A stretch of 64,000 bases of DNA, from NCBI GenBank assembly GCA_018819405.1, contig JAHJQF010000001.1, forward strand, positions 907,377 through 971,376, read 5' to 3'. The position numbers were made by a program, and so were the translations under genes. This document shows positions 2,535-56,782 of this stretch, in pieces. A model generated the notes under the pieces. It was given only the letters and a program-made list of their open reading frames with translations. It was not told the DNA's origin and did no database searches. How positions within the stretch are numbered: position 1 is the stretch's first letter; every line of letters begins with the position of its first letter. This DNA is from Patescibacteria group bacterium. Lineage in GTDB: Bacteria; Patescibacteriota; Patescibacteriia; UBA1558; GWA2-36-10.

Positions 2535-3647
2535 TTATTTAGCAAAAATAGTTATAGTATCTCTGGCTGCCTGATTATAAGAATAATCATAATTAAGCTC
2601 TGAAATAACTTTTGTATAATCTTGGTAAACTTTTTCATCAAGCAGTTCATCAATGGCCCTAGTCATATCCTGATAACTCAATGGATCAAAAGTTCTAATC
2701 TTATCACGCAACCAAGAAAAACCAATTTCACTGGTACTTAGTATTGGCACATTGAGACTGACTGCTTCAAGCATTGAATTGGGGCTGATATCAGTCAGTG
2801 ACGGCCAGACTAGCAGATAGGCATTGGCAATTCTTTTTTTCAAATCCTGACGAGAAAGTTTTTCTTCCATGTGAATATTATCGGCACCAAGCTCAGCAAT
2901 TAAATTTTGTATATCTTTTTTGAGAGGCCCTTCACCAATGAGTACCAAAGTGTATGAATGATCATGAATATCATGAAAGGCTCTGATAAAATTCAATATA
3001 TTATTTTTGTGAATAAAGCGTCCTGAAAAAATTATTTCTTTACTGACTTGCTCTCTGACAATAGCATCTGATAAGACAATTGGATTTTTGATAATAAAAA
3101 GTTTGTTATCTGCTAATTCATAATATTTTTTAAAAATTTCTTTTTGGAAACTAGTAGTAAAAATAATGCCCGTAGCCTGCCTGAAAATAAATCTTATGAT
3201 TTTGAACCTAAAATTTTCTGCTTGCTTATGAATACCTCGTTTATAAAAATCATGTAAAGTAACCAAGGCACCTGTCATATCCAAATATCTTTCCCAAATA
3301 AAATCACCACCGACCCTAATATAAAATGGCTTTTTATAAATACGGCAAAATAAAGCTGTAGGAATACCGGCACTAAAATGATCAAAACTATATATAATAT
3401 CGGCGTTTTTGGCTATTTTTTGAAGCTTTTGAAAATATCTCCAATAATTAAGCAATTTATTGGCTCGTTTTATCCTAAAAACAGGGTAGCCAAAACCACT
3501 GTCAAAATCATACCTAGCCTTGTCAGAATAAGTAAGTACTTCTACTTTGTGCCCCATTTTTATAAATTCTCTGGCAATATTGGGAGCATAAGTAGCTGGG
3601 CCACCAAGCTCTGGCACAAAAATTCCTGTTGCTATCACTATTTTCAC
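2535..3647 (-). CDS. glycosyltransferase (GT4-like), GTG start
   Basis: N-terminus MKIVIATGIFVPELGGPATYAPN. GT-B fold signature. 370 aa. Confidence 0.65.
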   Translation of the reverse strand: MKIVIATGIFVPELGGPATYAPNIAREFIKMGHKVEVLTYSDKARYDFDSGFGYPVFRIKRANKLLNYWRYFQKLQKIAKNADIIYSFDHFSAGIPTALFCRIYKKPFYIRVGGDFIWERYLDMTGALVTLHDFYKRGIHKQAENFRFKIIRFIFRQATGIIFTTSFQKEIFKKYYELADNKLFIIKNPIVLSDAIVREQVSKEIIFSGRFIHKNNILNFIRAFHDIHDHSYTLVLIGEGPLKKDIQNLIAELGADNIHMEEKLSRQDLKKRIANAYLLVWPSLTDISPNSMLEAVSLNVPILSTSEIGFSWLRDKIRTFDPLSYQDMTRAIDELLDEKVYQDYTKVISELNYDYSYNQAARDTITIFAK

Positions 3648-3678
3648 CCCGTTAGAAATTAATTATTAAATTTATCCT

Positions 3679-3767
3679 TTTGTCATTGCGAGGATCCGCC
3701 AGCTGGCGGAGACGAAGCAATCTACAAGCTTTTAGATTGCCACGCCCTTCGGGCTCGCAATGACAAA
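3679..3767. repeat. 89-bp palindromic element with perfect 14-bp terminal inverted repeats (TTTGTCATTGCGAG / CTCGCAATGACAAA), abutting the GIY-YIG stop codon
   Basis: Terminal inverted repeats (TIRs) read directly. Inner CCGCCAGCTGGCGG hairpin. Conserved core AATCTACAAGCTTTTAGATT, shared with the repeats at 19981-20184. Confidence 0.7.
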
Positions 3768-3769
3768 TA

Positions 3770-4057
3770 TTACAATTTATTATATAAATTAGCCCAATTT
3801 TTATTATATTTTTCTATTAAATCAATCTTTTTCTGTCTTGACCCCGCTTTAATTTGCTTTTCTCTAGATATAGCTTCATAAGCATCTTCATATATTTCAT
3901 AATATACTAATTTATTGATACTATATCGTGATGTAAATGATTTATTATCTAGTTTTTCTTTATGTTGCCATACTCTAACAATTAAATCATTTGTTACTCC
4001 TGTATATAATGTACCCTGTTTATGATTAGCCAAAATATAAACAAAATATTGTCTCAT
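3770..4057 (-). CDS. GIY-YIG nuclease family protein (small, about 95 aa)
   Basis: YFVYILANHKQGTLYTGVTNDLIVRVWQHK = GIY...YIG motif. Confidence 0.8.
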   Translation of the reverse strand: MRQYFVYILANHKQGTLYTGVTNDLIVRVWQHKEKLDNKSFTSRYSINKLVYYEIYEDAYEAISREKQIKAGSRQKKIDLIEKYNKNWANLYNKL

Positions 4058-4083
4058 CGCTTTTCTTCATATTTAATTGTAAA

Positions 4084-5232
4084 TTATTTTCCCAACATTC
4101 TTTGATAAACTCTATCCATCTGACTAGCTACTTTATCCCAAGAATATTTTTCTTTTACTAATTCCTGACCACGCTGGACAATTGATTTGTAAAGCTCTGG
4201 ATTTTTGACATATTTAGATACTGCCTCGGCAATGGAAGCCGGATTTCTGACTTCACAAAATAATCCAGTTTGACCGTCTTGTAAAAAATCAGGAATACCA
4301 CCGACTCTAGTAGCAATGATGGGCGTACCAACTGCCATAGCTTCTACAAAAGAATTACCAAAGCCTTCAGACAATGACGGACGACAAAAAATATCAGCTG
4401 ACTCTACATAAGGCGGTAATTTTTTGTAATCGGTATAGCCCATAAACAAAACATTGTCAGTGACTTTTTTTTCAACAGCCAAATTACGAAGTTTTTGCTC
4501 ATCAGGTCCAGAACCAAAAATAACAAGCTTAGTATTGATACCCATTTTGTAAACCAGAAAATGAACAGCTTTTATCAAATCATCTATTCCATTTTTTAAA
4601 ACCAATCTAGAGGTGGTGACAATCATAGTCTGATCAATCTGCACTCCTAGTTCCTCTCTAATCTTGGCAATACCGTCTTGATCAAGAGTGTTTTTGAAAA
4701 CATTCAAGTCAGCCGCATTTGGCACGAGTAATATTTCACCTTTATTACCCATCCGGCGTGATCTTTCGCCAAGCCACTTGGAAATTACCTGAGTTACTTT
4801 TGGTTCACGATAAATACGTTTGTAATAATAATCCCAAAACCAAGTTCTTTTTCTCAAAAATGCGTCACTGTCTCCGCTCTGCAAGGTAAGTAGATATGGG
4901 ACTTTTGTGTTATACTTAAAAAGTAAAGCTGCCAGACCGGCATAAAAAGCCATCATAGACCAGGCAAAATCAAATTTTATAATTCTATTCAAATTGATAG
5001 CATAAATAGTTGCCCTGAAAGGATAAATATATTTGTCCCATTTTTTACCATTACCAATACGACGGACATTAATATTGCCAATTTTTTCTTCTTTGGACCA
5101 AGTAGCATCAAACTGATTGGTAATCATATAATACTCATAATTTGGCAACCTATCAGTAATTTCTTTAATTGCTACTTCTGCTCCGCCAACATATGGATGG
5201 TAGGCCAGAGAAAAAATAAGAATTTTCTTCAT
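4084..5232 (-). CDS. glycosyltransferase family 4
   Basis: EGFGNSFVEAMAVGTPIIATRVGGIPD motif. Confidence 0.8.
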   Translation of the reverse strand: MKKILIFSLAYHPYVGGAEVAIKEITDRLPNYEYYMITNQFDATWSKEEKIGNINVRRIGNGKKWDKYIYPFRATIYAINLNRIIKFDFAWSMMAFYAGLAALLFKYNTKVPYLLTLQSGDSDAFLRKRTWFWDYYYKRIYREPKVTQVISKWLGERSRRMGNKGEILLVPNAADLNVFKNTLDQDGIAKIREELGVQIDQTMIVTTSRLVLKNGIDDLIKAVHFLVYKMGINTKLVIFGSGPDEQKLRNLAVEKKVTDNVLFMGYTDYKKLPPYVESADIFCRPSLSEGFGNSFVEAMAVGTPIIATRVGGIPDFLQDGQTGLFCEVRNPASIAEAVSKYVKNPELYKSIVQRGQELVKEKYSWDKVASQMDRVYQRMLGK

Positions 5233-6575: not shown

Positions 6576-7025
6576 ATGAAGAAGAAAAGTGAGATTACTA
6601 ATCAACAGATACTAAAGGCCATACAAGTATTGGATAAAAAGGTCAACAAAAATAGCGCAAATCTTGATAAATTAGCTGGTGCTATTAATATTTTTGCCGA
6701 CGACAACGAAGGACGTTTCAATGGCATTGACCAGCGTTTTGAGAAAATAGACCAACGTTTTGAGAAAATAGACCAGCGTTTTGAGAAAATAGACCAACGT
6801 TTTGAGAAAATAGACCAACGGCTCAATAAAATTGAAACAACAATGGTCAGCAAAGAATATTTGGACGAAAAACTACTTGATCTAAAAGGCGATCTAATAG
6901 TCACCATCCGAAAAGAAGATAAAAAATTGGGTACTTTAGTAAAAATTTTGGAAAATAAAAAGGTAATATCAAAAAAAGAAACTCAAACTATTATGTCACT
7001 AGAGCCTTTTCCCAACAATACTTAA
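6576..7025 (+). CDS. coiled-coil repeat protein (5x FEKIDQR heptad)
   Basis: The 21-bp tandem DNA repeat GACCAGCGTTTTGAGAAAATA at 6729-6833 encodes IDQRFEK x5. Confidence 0.5.
   Translation: MKKKSEITNQQILKAIQVLDKKVNKNSANLDKLAGAINIFADDNEGRFNGIDQRFEKIDQRFEKIDQRFEKIDQRFEKIDQRLNKIETTMVSKEYLDEKLLDLKGDLIVTIRKEDKKLGTLVKILENKKVISKKETQTIMSLEPFPNNT
6729..6833 (+). repeat. 5 tandem copies of a 21-bp repeat inside the CDS
   Basis: Direct reading: gaccagcgttttgagaaaata / gaccaacgttttgagaaaata ... Confidence 0.9.
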
Positions 7026-19972: not shown

Positions 19973-19980
19973 AGTTTTTA

Positions 19981-20184
19981 TGCGCGATTATTTTATTCAC
20001 TCCTTGTCATTCCGGACTCGCTCCGGAATCTACAAACTTTTAGTTTCCCGCTTGCGCGAGAATGACGAGAAGAGGTTAGCGATTATTTTATGCACTCCTT
20101 GTCATTCCGGACTCGCTCCGGAATCTACAAACTTTTAGTTTCCCGCTTGCGCGAGAATGACGAGAAGAGGTTAGCGATTATTTT
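19981..20184. repeat. about 2.2 tandem copies of a 95-bp structured repeat (CACTCCTTGTCATTCCGGACTCGCTCCGGAATCTACAAACTTTTAGTTTCCCGCTTGCGCGAGAATGACGAGAAGAGGTTAGCGATTATTTT)
   Basis: Exact 95-bp period (19998 and 20093). Internal hairpins. Family member of the element at 3679-3767. Overlaps the last 4 codons of the sigma gene. Confidence 0.85.
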
Positions 20185-52592: not shown

Positions 52593-52672
52593 TGGCGAGC
52601 GTCCCATCTTTGGGTTCAATTGGGGCAGTGTCTGCCCCTTTTATAGCTCGCTGAGACCCGCCGGTTTTGGTG

Positions 52673-53167
52673 TTAGGCCGCCATCAGGCGGCCAGGCCTA
52701 TTGCCGGGCGGGACGTCTTCCCTGCCGCCGTAATGGCCGAGGATGGAGCTCTTGTTCATCGTCACCTGGTAGTAGTCCCAGATGGCATCACCGGCCGAAG
52801 CCGACACACACAGTGCGCTCAGTGAGCTGGGAATCTTGATATATACCGGATCCAGATTGCTGACGACGCTGGAGCTCTTGTAGTAGAGCCCAACGGCATC
52901 ACCGGCCGAAGCCGCCACACACAGTGCGCTCATGTTACAGGACTCGTTGATCTTCTTCAGGACGACGGTCGTAGTGTTCGCCGTCGTGTCCATGTGATTG
53001 GCGATCGCCACGGCGATGTCCGTGCCGTCGGTGACCGCATACCACAGGTCGTTCTTCGCGTAACTGACCTGGCTGGCCATCGCGCCGCAAGCAAGCAGCA
53101 TGATGACGGCCACCAGAGCCAGAGCGGCGCCCATCATCAGACGCGAGGGTCCACGAATGTGATGCAT
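52673..53167 (-). CDS. GC-rich (about 62%) lipoprotein with internal duplicated motif SALCV(A/S)ASAGDA(V/I)..YY
   Basis: Signal peptide and lipobox ALALVAVIMLLACGAMA. SD GGGAGGAAG. Confidence 0.55.
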   Translation of the reverse strand: MHHIRGPSRLMMGAALALVAVIMLLACGAMASQVSYAKNDLWYAVTDGTDIAVAIANHMDTTANTTTVVLKKINESCNMSALCVAASAGDAVGLYYKSSSVVSNLDPVYIKIPSSLSALCVSASAGDAIWDYYQVTMNKSSILGHYGGREDVPPGNRPGRLMAA

Positions 53168-53409
53168 GTCTTCCTCCCTGAATGGGGACTAAAATGACTA
53201 CCTAAGGTAGCCGGCGAATGATACTCGGTTAAAAAACCTCCTTGGCTTTTGGTCTCACTATAATGAGTATACTTCCATAGGAAATATACTCGTGAAATTG
53301 TACAATACATATTTGAACATACAATATTTTGTAAATTCTGTCAATAACTATAAAAAATTCTACCCTGACCCAAGCTACTAAGTTTTATAGCTAATCTTCA
53401 TCACTTTTG

Positions 53410-53467
53410 GATAAAATCTATAAAAGAAAACCGGGCGAAACTCACTATGTGAAGCTTGTCTCGCCCG
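53410..53467 (-). terminator. cassette unit-1 terminator (CCGGGCGA..TCGCCCGG plus U-run)
   Basis: Direct read. Confidence 0.6.
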
Positions 53468-53661
53468 GTCAGGTGGTTGGCCCGAAGGCCACCGGATCGC
53501 TGTGCGATCATTTTTTGAGCCATTGGGCTCGAAGAAAAGAATATTGGGATTTTTGGAGATGGGCCTTGAGTCGCTTAAGTGCCCGGTCAGTTGGCCCGAT
53601 TACTCTGGCCGAGCTAAAGGTGGAATCGAAGCTTCATCGGCGACCTCGCTGGTCAGGCGGT

Positions 53662-53739
53662 TCATGCGGCCTTCGTGGCTGTACGGCGACGCAGCTCGGC
53701 GACGGTCTCCCTCGGGGGTCCAGTGTTTCGAATCTTCAT
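53662..53739 (-). CDS. 25-aa peptide MKIRNTGPPRETVAELRRRTATKAA (SD GGAAGGAG). Short-ORF family member
   Basis: SD 7 nt upstream. RBS region homologous to 49524-49545 and 54137-54160. Confidence 0.35.
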   Translation of the reverse strand: MKIRNTGPPRETVAELRRRTATKAA

Positions 53740-53876
53740 GATCAGACTCCTTCCTCGAGTCGCTTCAGAAAATTCCCGCCAAAATTAGCGGCATAGGAGA
53801 TGTGGCTCCTTCCAATATCGGCTGGGCTCCTGCCCTCCCCTATAGACCAACAGATCTAGCGAGAACGGCTGTTTTT

Positions 53877-53905
53877 ATGATACCAAGTGCCCTAAAATTA
53901 GTCAA
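53877..53905 (-). promoter_or_regulatory. sigma70 promoter TTGACT-17-TATCAT inside the conserved ATTGACTAATTT box
   Basis: Direct read. Confidence 0.55.
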
Positions 53906-53915
53906 TATAATAATC

Positions 53916-53969
53916 TAAACAAAAAAATACCGGACAAAACTCGCTCTTGGAGCTAAGTCTTGCCCGGCT
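53916..53969 (-). terminator. cassette unit-2 terminator (CCGGACAA..CTTGCCCGG plus U-run)
   Basis: Homologous to 53430-53467. Confidence 0.55.
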
Positions 53970-54091
53970 TGCATCGCTGTAGATAGTCTCACCTGACCCC
54001 AGGTAATATTCCCCTACGAGGGGATCGTGAGAGTTGACTGGTTCGTAAGCGAAGGTCATCCTCTCCAACTAACGCTGGGAACTTTAGGAAG

Positions 54092-54136
54092 TCAGGCGTT
54101 GTCCCCGATGGGACGTCCACGGATGCGGATAGCCAC
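54092..54136 (-). CDS. 14-aa peptide (GTG) MAIRIRGRPIGDNA (SD GAAAGGAG). Truncated paralog of 49416..49523
   Basis: 17/20-nt identity with the start of 49416..49523. Confidence 0.3.
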   Translation of the reverse strand: MAIRIRGRPIGDNA

Positions 54137-54204
54137 GATATGGCTCCTTTCGTCGAGTCACTTCATACGTCGTTCCCACCATTACTGGCAGGAGTGGCTC
54201 TCTT

Positions 54205-54233
54205 AAGATATCAATCGCTATTAAATTAGTCAA
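54205..54233 (-). promoter_or_regulatory. promoter TTGACT-17-TATCTT (ATTGACTAATTT box, second copy)
   Basis: Direct read. Confidence 0.4.
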
Positions 54234-54239
54234 TAAATT

Positions 54240-55037
54240 TTAAAAACTAAAACTAATAGTACCTAAGTCCTGAGTATTTTCTATTTCACACCCTACTTTT
54301 TTCAATCTTTCTATTGCTTCCTGATGCGGGTGGCCAAATTTATTGTCCAAGCCAGATTGAATAATACAAAATTCGGGCTGTACAGCCTGCAAAAACTCTA
54401 GTGATGAAGAATATTTACTACCATGATGGCCGACTTTTAGATACTGGGAATTTAAATCAAAACCACCGGACAATAACTTTTGTTCCCCTTCTATTGGCAA
54501 ATCTCCCATCAATAAAACATTTTTATCTTTATAGCTTAGTTTTATAACTACTGAGTTTTCATTGAAATCTTCATGCCAGTAGTCAGCTAAAAGAACCCTA
54601 AAATATAAATCATCGGAAAACATAAAACTCTCGCCTGCTTGTACAATTTGTGGTTGGATATTATTTTCTTGTAATTTTTGGGTAAAGATATTATACAAAA
54701 AATGATCGGGCTGGTGATTACTCACCAAAACATGTTTTACTTCGTACTTTTCTAAAAGCTCTACAAAACCCATCATATGATCATCATGCCAATGAGTAAT
54801 AATCAAATAATCAATCGTGTCCTCCCACCAAGGAAGTTTGTCGGCCATTTGGGACAAGAGCAGATTGTCCGGCCCGCCGTCTATCAAAATATTTTGACCA
54901 TCAGGAGTACGAATTAAAATTGCATCACCTTGCCCAACATCCAAAAAATTAATCGCTAGTTTATTTTCTATTCTATAAAAAGAAAAAAATAAAGCTGACA
55001 AAATTATTAGGGTTATAAAAAATATTGTTTTATTCAT
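54240..55037 (-). CDS. ComEC C-terminal metallo-beta-lactamase domain protein (separate ORF with N-terminal TM)
   Basis: THWHDDHMMG motif, GHHGSKYSS. Confidence 0.75.
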   Translation of the reverse strand: MNKTIFFITLIILSALFFSFYRIENKLAINFLDVGQGDAILIRTPDGQNILIDGGPDNLLLSQMADKLPWWEDTIDYLIITHWHDDHMMGFVELLEKYEVKHVLVSNHQPDHFLYNIFTQKLQENNIQPQIVQAGESFMFSDDLYFRVLLADYWHEDFNENSVVIKLSYKDKNVLLMGDLPIEGEQKLLSGGFDLNSQYLKVGHHGSKYSSSLEFLQAVQPEFCIIQSGLDNKFGHPHQEAIERLKKVGCEIENTQDLGTISFSF

Positions 55038-55069: not shown

Positions 55070-55182
55070 TTATATTTGTCATCCTGAACTTGTTTCAGGA
55101 TCTCCGATTGGAGATGCCGAAATACCCGCCTGCCATGACTACTGTCAGGCATGTCGGGCAGGAATTCGGCATAACAAAAATA
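55070..55182. repeat. structured GC-richer element (TTTGTCATCC plus hairpin ATCCTGAActtgTTCAGGAT ...) immediately 3' of the second GIY-YIG gene
   Basis: Same architecture as 3679-3767. Confidence 0.5.
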
Positions 55183-55473
55183 TCACAAAAAATCATCGCT
55201 AATATCCTCCCATTTTTTATTAACCGATTCCACTAAATTGTTCTTCCAATCTCTATGCCAATTTTTTAATTGTTTTTCTCTACAAATAGCATCATGCATA
55301 TGCTGATATACCTCATAATAAACCAGCTTTATAACATTATATGGCTTAGTAAAACCAATAATATCTTTATTTTTGTGTTGTTTTATCCTATTTATTAAAT
55401 CGCCAGTGACACCAATATACATAACATTATTATTTTGATTAGTTAAAATATAAACATAATATTCTTTATTCAT
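55183..55473 (-). CDS. GIY-YIG nuclease family protein (paralog of 3770..4057)
   Basis: YYVYILTNQNNNVMYIGVTGDLINRIKQHK. Confidence 0.8.
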   Translation of the reverse strand: MNKEYYVYILTNQNNNVMYIGVTGDLINRIKQHKNKDIIGFTKPYNVIKLVYYEVYQHMHDAICREKQLKNWHRDWKNNLVESVNKKWEDISDDFL

Positions 55474-56782
55474 AATTTTGAGGCTTAATTATAAAAGTCA
55501 AAATAAACATAAAACAAAGAAAAAAAATCATATAAAAACTACTGAAATCTTGTACTTCAATATAAGCCCTGGGTAATTGGGAAAGATAAAAAGATAAGAC
55601 AACAATTATCTTTAAAATAATAAAAAGCGGCCAAGCTAATAATTTTGCCAAAAATGGCCAAAAACCAAACCCCGCTAAAAACAGACTAAATACCAAAACC
55701 AATGGCAAAAAGGGCAAAATCAAAAAATTAGCCAAGGGCGCTACAATTGACACAATACCAAAATAATAAACAATCAAAGGCCAGGTAAATATTTGAGCGG
55801 CTAGGGTCACAGACATTACTTCTCTCAACTTAAATTTTTGGGGTACAAAAAACAAAACTTTCTGGAAAAATTTTACATAATAAAGCAAACCCAAGACTGC
55901 CAAAAATGACAATTGAAAACCTATATCATATAAAAGTAAATATGGATTGAGTAAGACAAATATATCAGCAGCCAAAACAAGGCTATATATAGATTCTGTA
56001 TCCCTGCCCAAAAAAGGCCCTAACATTAATATAGATAGCATCAAACTGGCTCGAACTGCCGAAGCTGGAAATCCTATCAAATATAAATATAAAAATAATA
56101 TTAAAATTAAAAACCAAAAGGCTTTTTTTCTAGACAAACCAATAGCAAACAAAAAACTCCTGACTAGCCAAACTATAATAGCCATATGCAGTCCGGAAAT
56201 AGCTACCACATGACTCAGGCCCACTTGAGCAAAAATATTTCTGGTATCACCAGGTATTTCCCGACGACTGGCCAGAAGCATAGCCTTGGCTAGTGATGAA
56301 GCCGGCTCACGAAGATAAATGTCAAGATTTTTCCAAAAATAATTTTTGGCTTGAAAAATATAAAAAGAAATACCTTTATCTTGAGAAATATATTTTACCT
56401 TTGGACGAAAACAAGTAGCATATATATTGTCCTTGGCTAAATATTTATCATAAAAAAATGTTTTGCCTTCATCATCCTCTATTGGCTCTGGTTTGTAAAC
56501 TTTGCCTGATAGTTCTAAAACATCACCATAATAATACTCTGGATACAAAGGAATATAGACTAAAATATTTCCGGAAAAATTATCTAAATCCAAAGGCTCT
56601 ACTAATATATTCCAACCATCTATCTTTTTGTCGGTATTTATTACTTTAGCTTTAAAACTATAAAAATTATCAAAAATAAAACCGGGATTATTTTCCCGAT
56701 TGTCAAAATATAGCAACCAAACAAAATTGAGTGCCAAAAAAATAAAACTAACCCCTAAAAAGCCTTGGCTTTTGCTCATCAA
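55466..56782 (-). CDS. comEC: ComEC N-terminal (DUF4131/OB) plus competence membrane domain
   Basis: GLSHVVAISGLHMAII and SFLAV motifs. Stop overlaps the GIY-YIG start. Confidence 0.75.
   Translation of the reverse strand: MMSKSQGFLGVSFIFLALNFVWLLYFDNRENNPGFIFDNFYSFKAKVINTDKKIDGWNILVEPLDLDNFSGNILVYIPLYPEYYYGDVLELSGKVYKPEPIEDDEGKTFFYDKYLAKDNIYATCFRPKVKYISQDKGISFYIFQAKNYFWKNLDIYLREPASSLAKAMLLASRREIPGDTRNIFAQVGLSHVVAISGLHMAIIVWLVRSFLFAIGLSRKKAFWFLILILFLYLYLIGFPASAVRASLMLSILMLGPFLGRDTESIYSLVLAADIFVLLNPYLLLYDIGFQLSFLAVLGLLYYVKFFQKVLFFVPQKFKLREVMSVTLAAQIFTWPLIVYYFGIVSIVAPLANFLILPFLPLVLVFSLFLAGFGFWPFLAKLLAWPLFIILKIIVVLSFYLSQLPRAYIEVQDFSSFYMIFFLCFMFILTFIIKPQNYE

Follow-up and report, generated by a model that had tools for sequence, protein, structure and literature searches.

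This report concerns a small nuclease gene and the palindrome that follows it in a 64-kb stretch of DNA (below, the window) from the 1,035,872-bp source contig of a Patescibacteria bacterium with a 1.04-Mb genome. The gene, here called ssn1, lies between two GT4 glycosyltransferase genes of the same strand (2535-3647 and 4084-5232), which leave a gap of 436 bp (3648-4083). It starts 26 nt past the glycosyltransferase stop codon, and two nucleotides (3768-3769) separate its own stop codon from an 89-bp palindrome. A paralogue with 48% identity, ssn2, is found further along the window and is followed by a 104-bp tail of like architecture. Previously, a sequence-only reading had noted a 95-amino-acid GIY-YIG gene in a gap of about 430 bp in a glycosyltransferase operon, an 89-bp element with perfect 14-bp inverted ends 2 nt past the stop codon, and a second GIY-YIG paralogue with an analogous tail. 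These observations hold, and the coordinates of the 89-bp element (3679-3767) were verified. The features at the two genes are as follows, where SRM stands for Ssn-related motif.

3770..4057, minus strand: ssn1, GIY-YIG open reading frame of 95 amino acids, single domain, placed in the Ssn family by PF01541 and homology to SsnA
3679..3767, unstranded: 89-bp head-to-head dimer of two Ssn-related motifs, recognised from sequence and fold
3681..3722, plus strand: SRM-A, the gene-distal motif, with a TGTC tag, ATTGCGAGG, a hairpin-bearing insert of 19 nt, CGAAGCAAT and a C; as a whole TGTCATTGCGAGGATCCGCCAGCTGGCGGAGACGAAGCAATC
3723..3734, unstranded: 12-nt spacer TACAAGCTTTTA between SRM-A and SRM-B, which recurs in gene-less dimers at about 20 kb and in a metagenome contig (L085)
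3735..3765, minus strand: SRM-B, the gene-proximal motif on the sense strand of ssn1, with a TGTC tag, ATTGCGAG, a CCCGAAGGGC hairpin, GTGGCAAT and a C; as a whole TGTCATTGCGAGCCCGAAGGGCGTGGCAATC
55183..55473, minus strand: ssn2, the paralogue, 96 amino acids, with the motif NWHRDWK; PF01541 at E=1e-17 over residues 5-78 and no other domain

The ssn1 protein matches the Pfam GIY-YIG domain (PF01541) with E=4e-13 over residues 3-77 and has no other domains. The best guide to its function is SsnA, a 94-amino-acid single-domain GIY-YIG protein (CDD cd10448) that is associated with hairpin repeats, called NTS in Neisseria and SRM in general (Chenal et al. 2025, Nat Commun 16:2388, PMC11893778, cited here for the first three parts of its Results, its Discussion and two of its Methods sections). 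In that work, the family was delimited by size, below 150 amino acids, and by a blastp match to SsnA of Neisseria (E<1e-10, coverage of 75% or more). In our blastp comparison with SsnA of N. gonorrhoeae, ssn1 shows 48% identity over SsnA residues 2-90 (E 1e-28) and ssn2 shows 51% over residues 5-94 (E 5e-32), each with about 95% coverage. Both proteins thus fall within the published limits, and both have equivalents of Y6, Y17 and E64, whose replacement by alanine (Y6A, Y17A, E64A) abolishes cleavage by SsnA. In ssn2 the residues at the catalytic positions are Y8, Y19 and E66, and in ssn1 Y7, Y18, R28, H32, E66 and N85 are invariant across the family alignment. The N. gonorrhoeae protein was found by tblastn in PLSDB, in a chromosome-sized record labelled as a plasmid (L091); it has Y6, Y17 and E64 at the published positions, and 12 perfect NTS motifs lie in the 1.47 kb around its gene. 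ssn1 and ssn2 are also 50-55% identical to the L075 protein, whose gene has the exact NTS consensus on both flanks, and the protein is 60-65% identical across Patescibacteria, Nostoc/Anabaena cyanobacteria and Gammaproteobacteria. NCBIfam holds no model specific to the Ssn family.

SsnA binds its hairpin only as single-stranded DNA (ssDNA); it does not bind the opposite strand, nor duplex DNA or RNA, and neither double-stranded DNA (dsDNA) nor RNA is cut (PMC11893778). The nick lies a few nucleotides 5' of the motif. Binding needs the C past the palindrome, and cutting needs the three nucleotides ahead of it (GTC). The same study found distinct specificities among four homologues, a motif nearby in 71% of homologues and on both sides in 42%, and transformation of N. 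meningitidis by NTS-bearing DNA that was about five-fold lower with the enzyme. Repeats of a similar build had been catalogued earlier as CGTC-tagged repetitive extragenic palindromes (REPs), with CGTC, TGTC or CCTC as the terminal tag, stems of 8-9 bp "almost invariably" opening A, T, and loops of 4-5 nt that are variable in Bradyrhizobium (Di Nocera et al. 2013, BMC Genomics 14:522, PMC3733652). They occur mostly as head-to-head dimers, the class includes dRS3 of Neisseria and RPE of Rickettsia, and they were stated to be without a dedicated transposase.

The 89-bp palindrome downstream of ssn1 consists of two such hairpin motifs placed head to head and is not a transposon with terminal inverted repeats. 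Its 14-nt arms, TTTGTCATTGCGAG (3679-3692) and CTCGCAATGACAAA (3754-3767), are perfectly complementary, and the sequence-only reading had taken them for the perfect terminal inverted repeats of a mini-element. The arms are the tag-plus-stem boxes of SRM-A and SRM-B; they belong to two separate motifs and are not the ends of a gene-containing element, and the gene lies outside them. Each motif reads TGTC, ATTGCGAG...GCAAT and C. Two hairpins are found inside the element, at 3695-3710 (TCCGCCAG/CTGGCGGA) and 3744-3754 (GCCC-TTCG-GGC), and its centre (3717-3740) is an imperfect palindrome. SRM-B lies 3 nt and SRM-A 48-88 nt past the ssn1 stop codon. Folding of the element, which had been proposed as a check, gave -47.4 kcal/mol (z = -5.8), and 0 of 200 dinucleotide shuffles were as stable. 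With 53% GC it forms a GC island against 24% in ssn1 and 36% in the window. The two arms are the only exact copies in the 64 kb; five further matches with up to three mismatches each carry three and are not above shuffles. A pair consisting of a reverse-complement and a forward motif likewise lies 3' of the gene in L002, L016, L023, L055, L056, L059, L078 and L088, which belong to the loci of ssn1 relatives compared below.

The tail of ssn2 (55075-55178) folds with -49.9 kcal/mol (z = -5.9); its architecture is that of the 89-bp element, with different stems. Two more dimers are found about 20 kb into the window.

55077..55102, plus strand: SRM-D, the motif distal to ssn2, with a TGTC tag, ATCCTGAA, the loop CTTGT, TTCAGGAT and a C; perfect 8-bp stem, 81-105 nt past the ssn2 stop codon
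55113..55176, minus strand: SRM-E, the degenerate partner of SRM-D, with a TGTT tag, ATGCCGAA, a 43-nt insert hairpin, TTCGGCAT and a C
20005..20067, unstranded: gene-less head-to-head dimer of TGTCATTCCGGActcgcTCCGGAATC (plus) with the NTS-like CGTCATTCTCGCGCAAGCGGGAAAC (minus)
20100..20162, unstranded: a further copy of this dimer without a gene; 91 of 95 positions agree between the tandem 95-bp units

The four dimers in the window are all head to head with their tags outward. The tag is TGTC at SRM-A, SRM-B, SRM-D, 20005 and 20100, CGTC at 20067 and 20162, and TGTT at SRM-E. An 8-bp stem with a 5-nt loop is found at 20005, 20100 and 55077, and the ATTGCGAG type has a 5-bp basal stem with inserts of about 10-20 nt. 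The features critical for SsnA, a hairpin near the gene with a GTC tag, a palindromic stem and a 3' C, are present at SRM-A, SRM-B and SRM-D. The tandem units (19980-20169) are flanked by genes for a DUF5667 protein and an ECF sigma factor, and no GIY-YIG gene adjoins them; the spacer of their dimers, CTACAA(A/G)CTTTTAG, recurs in the 89-bp element. When metagenomes were scanned for the dimer core GSAATCTACAARCTTTTAGWTTSC, one contig of 1.2 kb (L085) came up, with a gene-less dimer, too little for an estimate of how frequent such dimers are.

The motif class is widespread. We compared 80 loci encoding ssn1 relatives (427 kb of contigs, one genome per species), which cover nearly all bacterial phyla, among them cyanobacteria, Chloroflexota, Bacteroidota, Pseudomonadota, Bacillota, Patescibacteria and Omnitrophota. 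In most of them, a conserved module follows directly past the stop codon and consists of GATTGC(Y)(W)CG, a hairpin that varies and is often rich in GC, and CTCGCAATGAC(R). A simple pattern for this module has 241 copies in the 427 kb against 2-10 in shuffles, and the boxes are found in either orientation and also at a distance from the gene. Seen from the opposite strand, the module is a (T/C)GTC tag, a stem opening AT, an insert, a closing arm ending AT and then a C; the first two stem pairs are A-T and T-A, the loop or insert is variable, and the C stands directly past the stem. In 240 copies, conservation of the boxes was strong also at positions not fixed in the search, and it stopped abruptly 1-3 nt outside the module on both sides. 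These sharp limits fall at the tag and the post-stem C, the positions found critical by mutagenesis of the Neisseria motif (PMC11893778). Stem complementarity was a requirement of our motif collection. Among the 79 loci with an intact reading frame, and counting motifs within 200 nt, a motif lies upstream in sense orientation in 49 and downstream of the stop codon in antisense orientation in 56; 43 have motifs on both sides with the tags outward. These counts are in line with the published 71% and 42%.

Motifs may also be crowded beside the gene: L030 has four tandem copies past the stop codon (725-930), and L064 has 16 copies in 3.7 kb. In L020 (about 3280-3330), L053 and L069, the nuclease gene has lost its stop codon or has it in another place, and its reading frame runs on through the hairpin motif, which gives the protein a C-terminal extension (in L020, ...NVIASRND...). 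Such translated motifs probably explain many odd tails of "hypothetical proteins", such as VIASRND, LAMT and IPAFAGMT.

The stem sequence of the motif co-varies with the stretch of the protein that aligns to residues 71-77 of ssn1, which are AGSRQKK.

(A/G/S)G(S/N)RxKK: stem ATTGCGAG, in more than 40 loci and ssn1
K/A-W-N/K-R-x-W-K (for example KWNRAWK): stem ATTCC(C/T)GC, the ATTCCCGC NTS type, in L042, L043, L057, L061, L067 and L075
GWLRxKK: stem ATTCTGAG, in L053 and L073
NWDRQWK: stem ATACCACT, in L028
NWHRDWK: stem ATCCTGAA, in ssn2

This pattern is as expected of cognate pairs of enzyme and site, with residues 71-77 as the predicted specificity determinants. The genome would thus hold at least two enzyme/motif pairs, ssn1 (AGSRQKK) with the ATTGCGAG type and ssn2 (NWHRDWK) with the ATCCTGAA type, each paralogue presumably recognising its own motif.

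Taken together, we consider it likely that ssn1 and ssn2 are Ssn-family ssDNA nucleases that lie beside head-to-head dimers of their cognate hairpin repeats, which are Ssn-related motifs or CGTC-type REPs. The sequence-only reading had offered, as its alternative, that the palindromes are the target of the nuclease, and this is the part that our analysis strengthens: the proteins belong to the Ssn family, characterised members act on this class of substrate, and the motif lies within 200 nt past the stop codon in the 56 of 79 relatives counted above. We infer from their sequences that ssn1 and ssn2 would bind and cleave ssDNA. By homology to the enzymes of Neisseria, N. elongata, N. wadsworthii and Wolbachia, the motif strand would fold into a hairpin when the region turns single-stranded, for example during replication, repair or DNA uptake. 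Ssn would then bind the stem and the C that follows it and, with Mg2+, would nick a few nucleotides 5' of the tag; the complementary strand, dsDNA and RNA would be non-substrates.

Several points weigh against this assignment. Our reference protein is the N. gonorrhoeae orthologue (L091 598-879, 94 amino acids) and not N. meningitidis CAX49033.1. The published SRM pattern, HGTCWYN(0-2)YYVSBRHN(0-5)WNVSBRGN(0-2)RNCYNB, has 0 matches in the 64-kb window, and the NTS consensus used as a control was matched. In the 80 loci it finds only the ATTCCCGC type, with 12 hits in 6 loci, against 239 GTCATTGCGA boxes. The ATTGCGAG type has a basal stem of only 5 bp, then a conserved 3x3 block of mismatches and a long insert, and in this it is unlike every motif that has been biochemically tested, and the Ssn enzymes assayed so far all come from outside this subclade and outside Patescibacteria. 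Three dimers have a degenerate arm (TGTT at 55113-55176, and AAAC for AATC at about 20.05 and 20.15 kb). Lastly, the motifs in the window lie on one side of each gene only, and the canonical arrangement has them on both sides; no motif was found upstream of ssn1, in its 26-nt spacer, or of ssn2, at its overlap with comEC. A scan built on features instead of the published pattern (GTC, a stem of 7 bp or more that opens AT and has no more than one mismatch, a loop and a C) finds SRM-B, SRM-D and the two motifs at 20 kb, with a shuffle mean of 1.8 hits, and recovers 12 of 12 NTS in the Neisseria control. ATTGC-type motifs and Patescibacteria are not mentioned in the main text of PMC11893778, and a full-text search of the literature for GTCATTGCGAG, CTCGCAATGAC and related boxes returned unrelated primers only.

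Insertion-free alleles, whose comparison had been suggested, were found for the ssn1 locus in three relatives. The orthologues of the upstream glycosyltransferase are 87% (L081), 74% (L082) and 71% (L083/L084) identical, synteny is kept, and no GIY-YIG gene lies between the glycosyltransferase genes. The common order is a divergent glycosyltransferase gene (401-403 amino acids), the queried one and the next one, and in L081 the downstream protein is 68% identical to that of the window. The empty spacers measure 80 nt (L081), 27 nt (L082) and 77 nt (L083/L084). In the alignment to L081, homology resumes directly past ...AATGACAAA, where SRM-A has its outer end. The window lacks about 48 nt of the spacer seen at the empty site, which form one arm of a local inverted repeat: the empty spacers (L081 3227-3306; L083 6141-6217) have their own inverted repeat CCCCGTTAGAAAT...ATTTCTAACGGGG, of which the window has only the right arm (3645-3660). 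The left arm seems to have given way to the cassette, and no target-site duplication is recognisable at the ssn1 site. The close relatives without the cassette suggest that its insertion was recent; the gene and its dimer behave as an insertion cassette of about 430 bp without a promoter of its own. Elsewhere in this part of the window, directly past the glycosyltransferase cluster, a 149-amino-acid reading frame on the plus strand (6576-7025) contains five tandem IDQRFEK heptads and is probably a coiled-coil protein. ARAGORN found no tRNA or tmRNA genes in the 64 kb.

The ssn2 locus lies at the junction between comEC and a gene for a metallo-beta-lactamase (MBL)-fold protein. The start codon (ATG) of ssn2 overlaps the comEC stop codon by 8 nt, and at empty sites it is the comEC and MBL genes that overlap by 8 nt.

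55466-56782: comEC (Competence domain and DUF4131)
54240-55037: MBL-fold gene
55029..55037, minus strand: ATGAATAAA at the start of the MBL gene, a direct repeat of 55465-55473 (ssn2 start); together the repeats flank an insert of 436 bp

In the empty alleles, the MBL gene opens with the same three codons as ssn2 (MNK). The loci examined come from relatives with 62-76% identity, and nine of them were compared at the junction.

Empty junction, 6 of 9: L086, L087, L089, L090 and the P0246 and P0262 contigs
Ssn gene at the junction, 2 of 9: L088 and L092
Gene for a 130-amino-acid DUF559 (Vsr-like endonuclease) protein at the junction, 1 of 9: P0247 contig

The three Ssn proteins at this junction differ in the specificity stretch and in the stem of their motif.

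ssn2 of the window: NWHRDWK, stem ATCCTGAA
L088: NLVRRKK, stem ATTCTGGAG
L092: RWRRKWK, stem ATCCCCGA

They are mutually only 46-47% identical, a distance like that between ssn2 and Neisseria SsnA (49%), and the ComEC proteins of their hosts are 62-69% identical. L092 has the canonical order motif-gene-motif, and its TGTC tag abuts the TAA stop codon of comEC. From these sequences the junction looks like an insertion hot spot, and the DUF559 occupant means that it may simply be permissive. A comEC-like gene lies within 3 kb of the Ssn gene in 1 of the 80 unrelated loci (L037), so that the link between Ssn and comEC is specific to this clade. We also considered that the ssn2 cassette had split a once-fused comEC; this was rejected, as all 120 relatives among the matches listed have a comEC of about 437 amino acids without Lactamase_B, and the MBL gene is separate in the examined loci.

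Next to this junction, between a response-regulator gene and the MBL gene, lies a 1.6-kb island (52620-54240) with 50-61% GC in a genome of 36% GC. It contains a GC-rich 164-amino-acid reading frame (52673-53167, minus strand), inside which a stretch of 111 bp is directly repeated (52766-52932), has little coding potential downstream of that frame, and gives no Rfam match even at E<=1. The response-regulator and MBL genes are about 80 nt apart in L087 and L089, so the island looks like another insertion.

Part of the original proposal, a selfish cassette resembling a homing endonuclease, finds support in the presence or absence of the cassette at both loci and in a hot spot occupied by different lineages; the genes are not classical homing endonucleases. 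Elements never found beside GIY-YIG genes, or nuclease genes at conserved syntenic positions, had been named as signs against a cassette; both were looked for, and neither applies. The comparisons support the view that small nuclease cassettes have repeatedly been gained or turned over at junctions that tolerate them, and how a cassette moves is something that we infer. The assignment to Ssn could be extended to an autonomous mobile element, in which Ssn would be the transposase or homing nuclease in a GIY-YIG analogue of IS200/IS605 or of REP/RAYT, and the gene-less dimers would be REPIN-like derivatives. This extension is tentative, and we think it somewhat improbable. An insertion sequence-like NTS-ssnA-NTS architecture and the parallel with REP/RAYT have been raised as a hypothesis (PMC11893778). 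Our data add the presence or absence of the cassette at two loci among relatives at 62-87% identity, three Ssn lineages that are 46-47% identical at one junction in hosts with ComEC proteins of 62-69% identity, and the 9-nt direct repeat ATGAATAAA around the ssn2 cassette. Outward-facing motifs on both sides in 43 of 79 loci, the sharp outer edges of motif conservation, the existence of gene-less dimers and the 60-65% identity of the protein between Patescibacteria, cyanobacteria and proteobacteria point the same way, as does a GC content of 24-25% in the ssn genes against 30-36% in neighbouring genes. However, we know of no strand-transfer, transposition or strand-joining activity for any Ssn; a GIY-YIG nuclease cuts and is not known to us to ligate. 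There is no target-site duplication at ssn1, where about 48 nt of the empty spacer were replaced and not interrupted, and the DUF559 gene suggests that the comEC junction may simply tolerate insertions. No copy was found in 50,697 phage records, the plasmid matches are large replicons that are almost all non-mobilizable, and the same flanks in two Chryseobacterium species point to vertical inheritance.

A further proposal, which we regard as rather doubtful and slightly less probable still, is that Ssn-plus-SRM cassettes are mobile units that enter gene junctions time and again, and that in this Patescibacteria clade at least three Ssn lineages with different specificities came independently to precisely the comEC/MBL stop/start overlap and captured translational coupling to the DNA-uptake channel. 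If this is true, junction cassettes would supply the dedicated enzyme that the CGTC-type REPs were said in 2013 to lack, and Ssn would be tied to the processing of incoming ssDNA in bacteria that depend on scavenged DNA.

It is also conceivable, though improbable, that the palindromes act mainly at the level of RNA, as terminators or as hairpins that stabilise the 3' end of the mRNA, and that their closeness to GIY-YIG genes has no enzymatic meaning. The hairpins do stand at the 3' ends of reading frames and are very stable (-47 and -50 kcal/mol), and REP-type repeats are transcribed and affect mRNA stability (PMC3733652). Yet no T-run follows the stem (the sequence there is AAAAGGATAAATTT), a scan of 3400-4400 gave no terminator-like sites, and the element lies within an operon, 31 nt ahead of the start codon of the next glycosyltransferase gene. 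The boxes are conserved across phyla in both orientations, unlike ordinary terminators, SsnA binds no RNA (PMC11893778), and no Rfam family matches. A known structured RNA had been considered for the 89-bp element and was dropped, as neither a scan of the window at the gathering threshold nor an E-value scan of 3600-4100 gave a relevant Rfam match. The sole Rfam family in the window is a cobalamin riboswitch (RF00174, 62919-63050, minus strand), with 35.5 bits and above the gathering score.

Very unlikely, in our judgement, are free-standing GIY-YIG homing endonucleases of the classical I-TevI/Seg type, which would cut dsDNA at the empty allele and spread by recombinational repair. Presence/absence polymorphism at fixed sites is what such enzymes would leave, and there are weak sub-threshold matches to TIGR01453 and to the PADLOC homing-endonuclease model. 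But for TIGR01453, the model for group I intron endonucleases, the scores are 16.9 and 20.9 bits against a cut-off of 56.05, and proteins of 95-96 amino acids have no linker or DNA-binding domain. The genes are intergenic in a bacterial chromosome, tblastn gave no match in the 50,697 phage records, a conserved association with hairpin repeats is not a Seg/Tev feature, and characterised family members leave dsDNA uncut (PMC11893778). Least probable of all is that the nuclease uses the structured tail as a non-coding RNA, a guide or scaffold like those of TnpB and IscB: a multi-branch fold does adjoin a nuclease without a DNA-binding domain, and split DNA half-sites can program cleavage (PMC11893778), but SsnA neither binds nor cuts RNA (same source), motifs are found in both orientations and also well away from the gene, their inserts vary freely, and there is no Rfam match.

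The Ssn assignment means that the combination of gene and palindrome is already known in kind, as the system of Ssn nuclease and hairpin repeats described in 2025, and this system in turn explains the "orphan" CGTC-tagged REPs of the 2013 catalogue. What is new is that the system reaches the reduced genomes of Patescibacteria, with two enzyme/motif pairs within 64 kb. The common motif class GTCATTGCGAG...GAAGCAATC is missed by the published pattern, and censuses based on that pattern therefore undercount it. Residues 71-77, as likely specificity determinants, are useful for assembling a panel of ssDNA-cutting Ssn enzymes. Pairs of filled and empty alleles, together with the comEC hot spot, make it directly testable whether the cassettes are mobile or have been domesticated for the control of DNA uptake.

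Compared with known systems, the nearest solved structures by sequence are the UPF0213 proteins BH0048 (1zg2) and EF2693 (1ywl). They too are small single-domain GIY-YIG proteins, but they are only remotely related (E 2e-7 and 2e-3, where SsnA gives 1e-28); to our knowledge no function has been characterised for them, and we know of no reported association with repeats. In REP/REPIN-RAYT systems, the REPs have a GTAG tag and the enzyme is an HUH tyrosine transposase of the IS200/IS605 family. Shared features are an unpaired tetranucleotide tag, inverted doublets, an enzyme gene flanked by repeats, action on ssDNA hairpins and co-evolution of enzyme and repeat. The chemistry differs, with a hydrolytic GIY-YIG nuclease here and an HUH-Tyr transesterase there, and so does the tag, GTC against GTAG.

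The CGTC-tagged REPs (CGTC-1 to CGTC-4; dRS3, RPE-4 and RPE-6) resemble the motifs of the window in their unpaired CGTC/TGTC tag, a stem opening A, T and a short tail. They are likewise intergenic and occur mainly as head-to-head dimers, often heterodimers, and the 8-bp stem with a 4-5-nt loop is found at 20005 and 55077. PMC3733652 concluded that they had no dedicated enzyme, whereas here, as in Chenal et al. 2025, Ssn genes adjoin the repeats. The long and variable inserts of the ATTGCGAG type are a second difference, as PMC3733652 has such inserts only for CGTC-1 of Bradyrhizobium.

The closest system remains SsnA with its SRMs. The enzymes here are single-domain GIY-YIG proteins of about 95 amino acids with 48-51% identity to SsnA and the same catalytic residues, the motifs have the (C/T)GTC tag, the AT-opening stem and the post-stem C, repeats are found beside the gene and elsewhere in the genome, and there are several enzyme/motif specificities. 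The empty sites in close relatives set our data apart, as the sections of PMC11893778 cited at the outset contain no such comparison. The motifs differ in the ATTGCGAG type, with its 5-bp stem, mismatched block and insert of 10-20 nt or more, which the published pattern misses, and in their arrangement as a head-to-head dimer found only on one side of the gene. The host differs as well, being a member of Patescibacteria (candidate phyla radiation, CPR) with a genome of about 1 Mb, in which the genes lie inside operons and ssn2 is translationally coupled to comEC.

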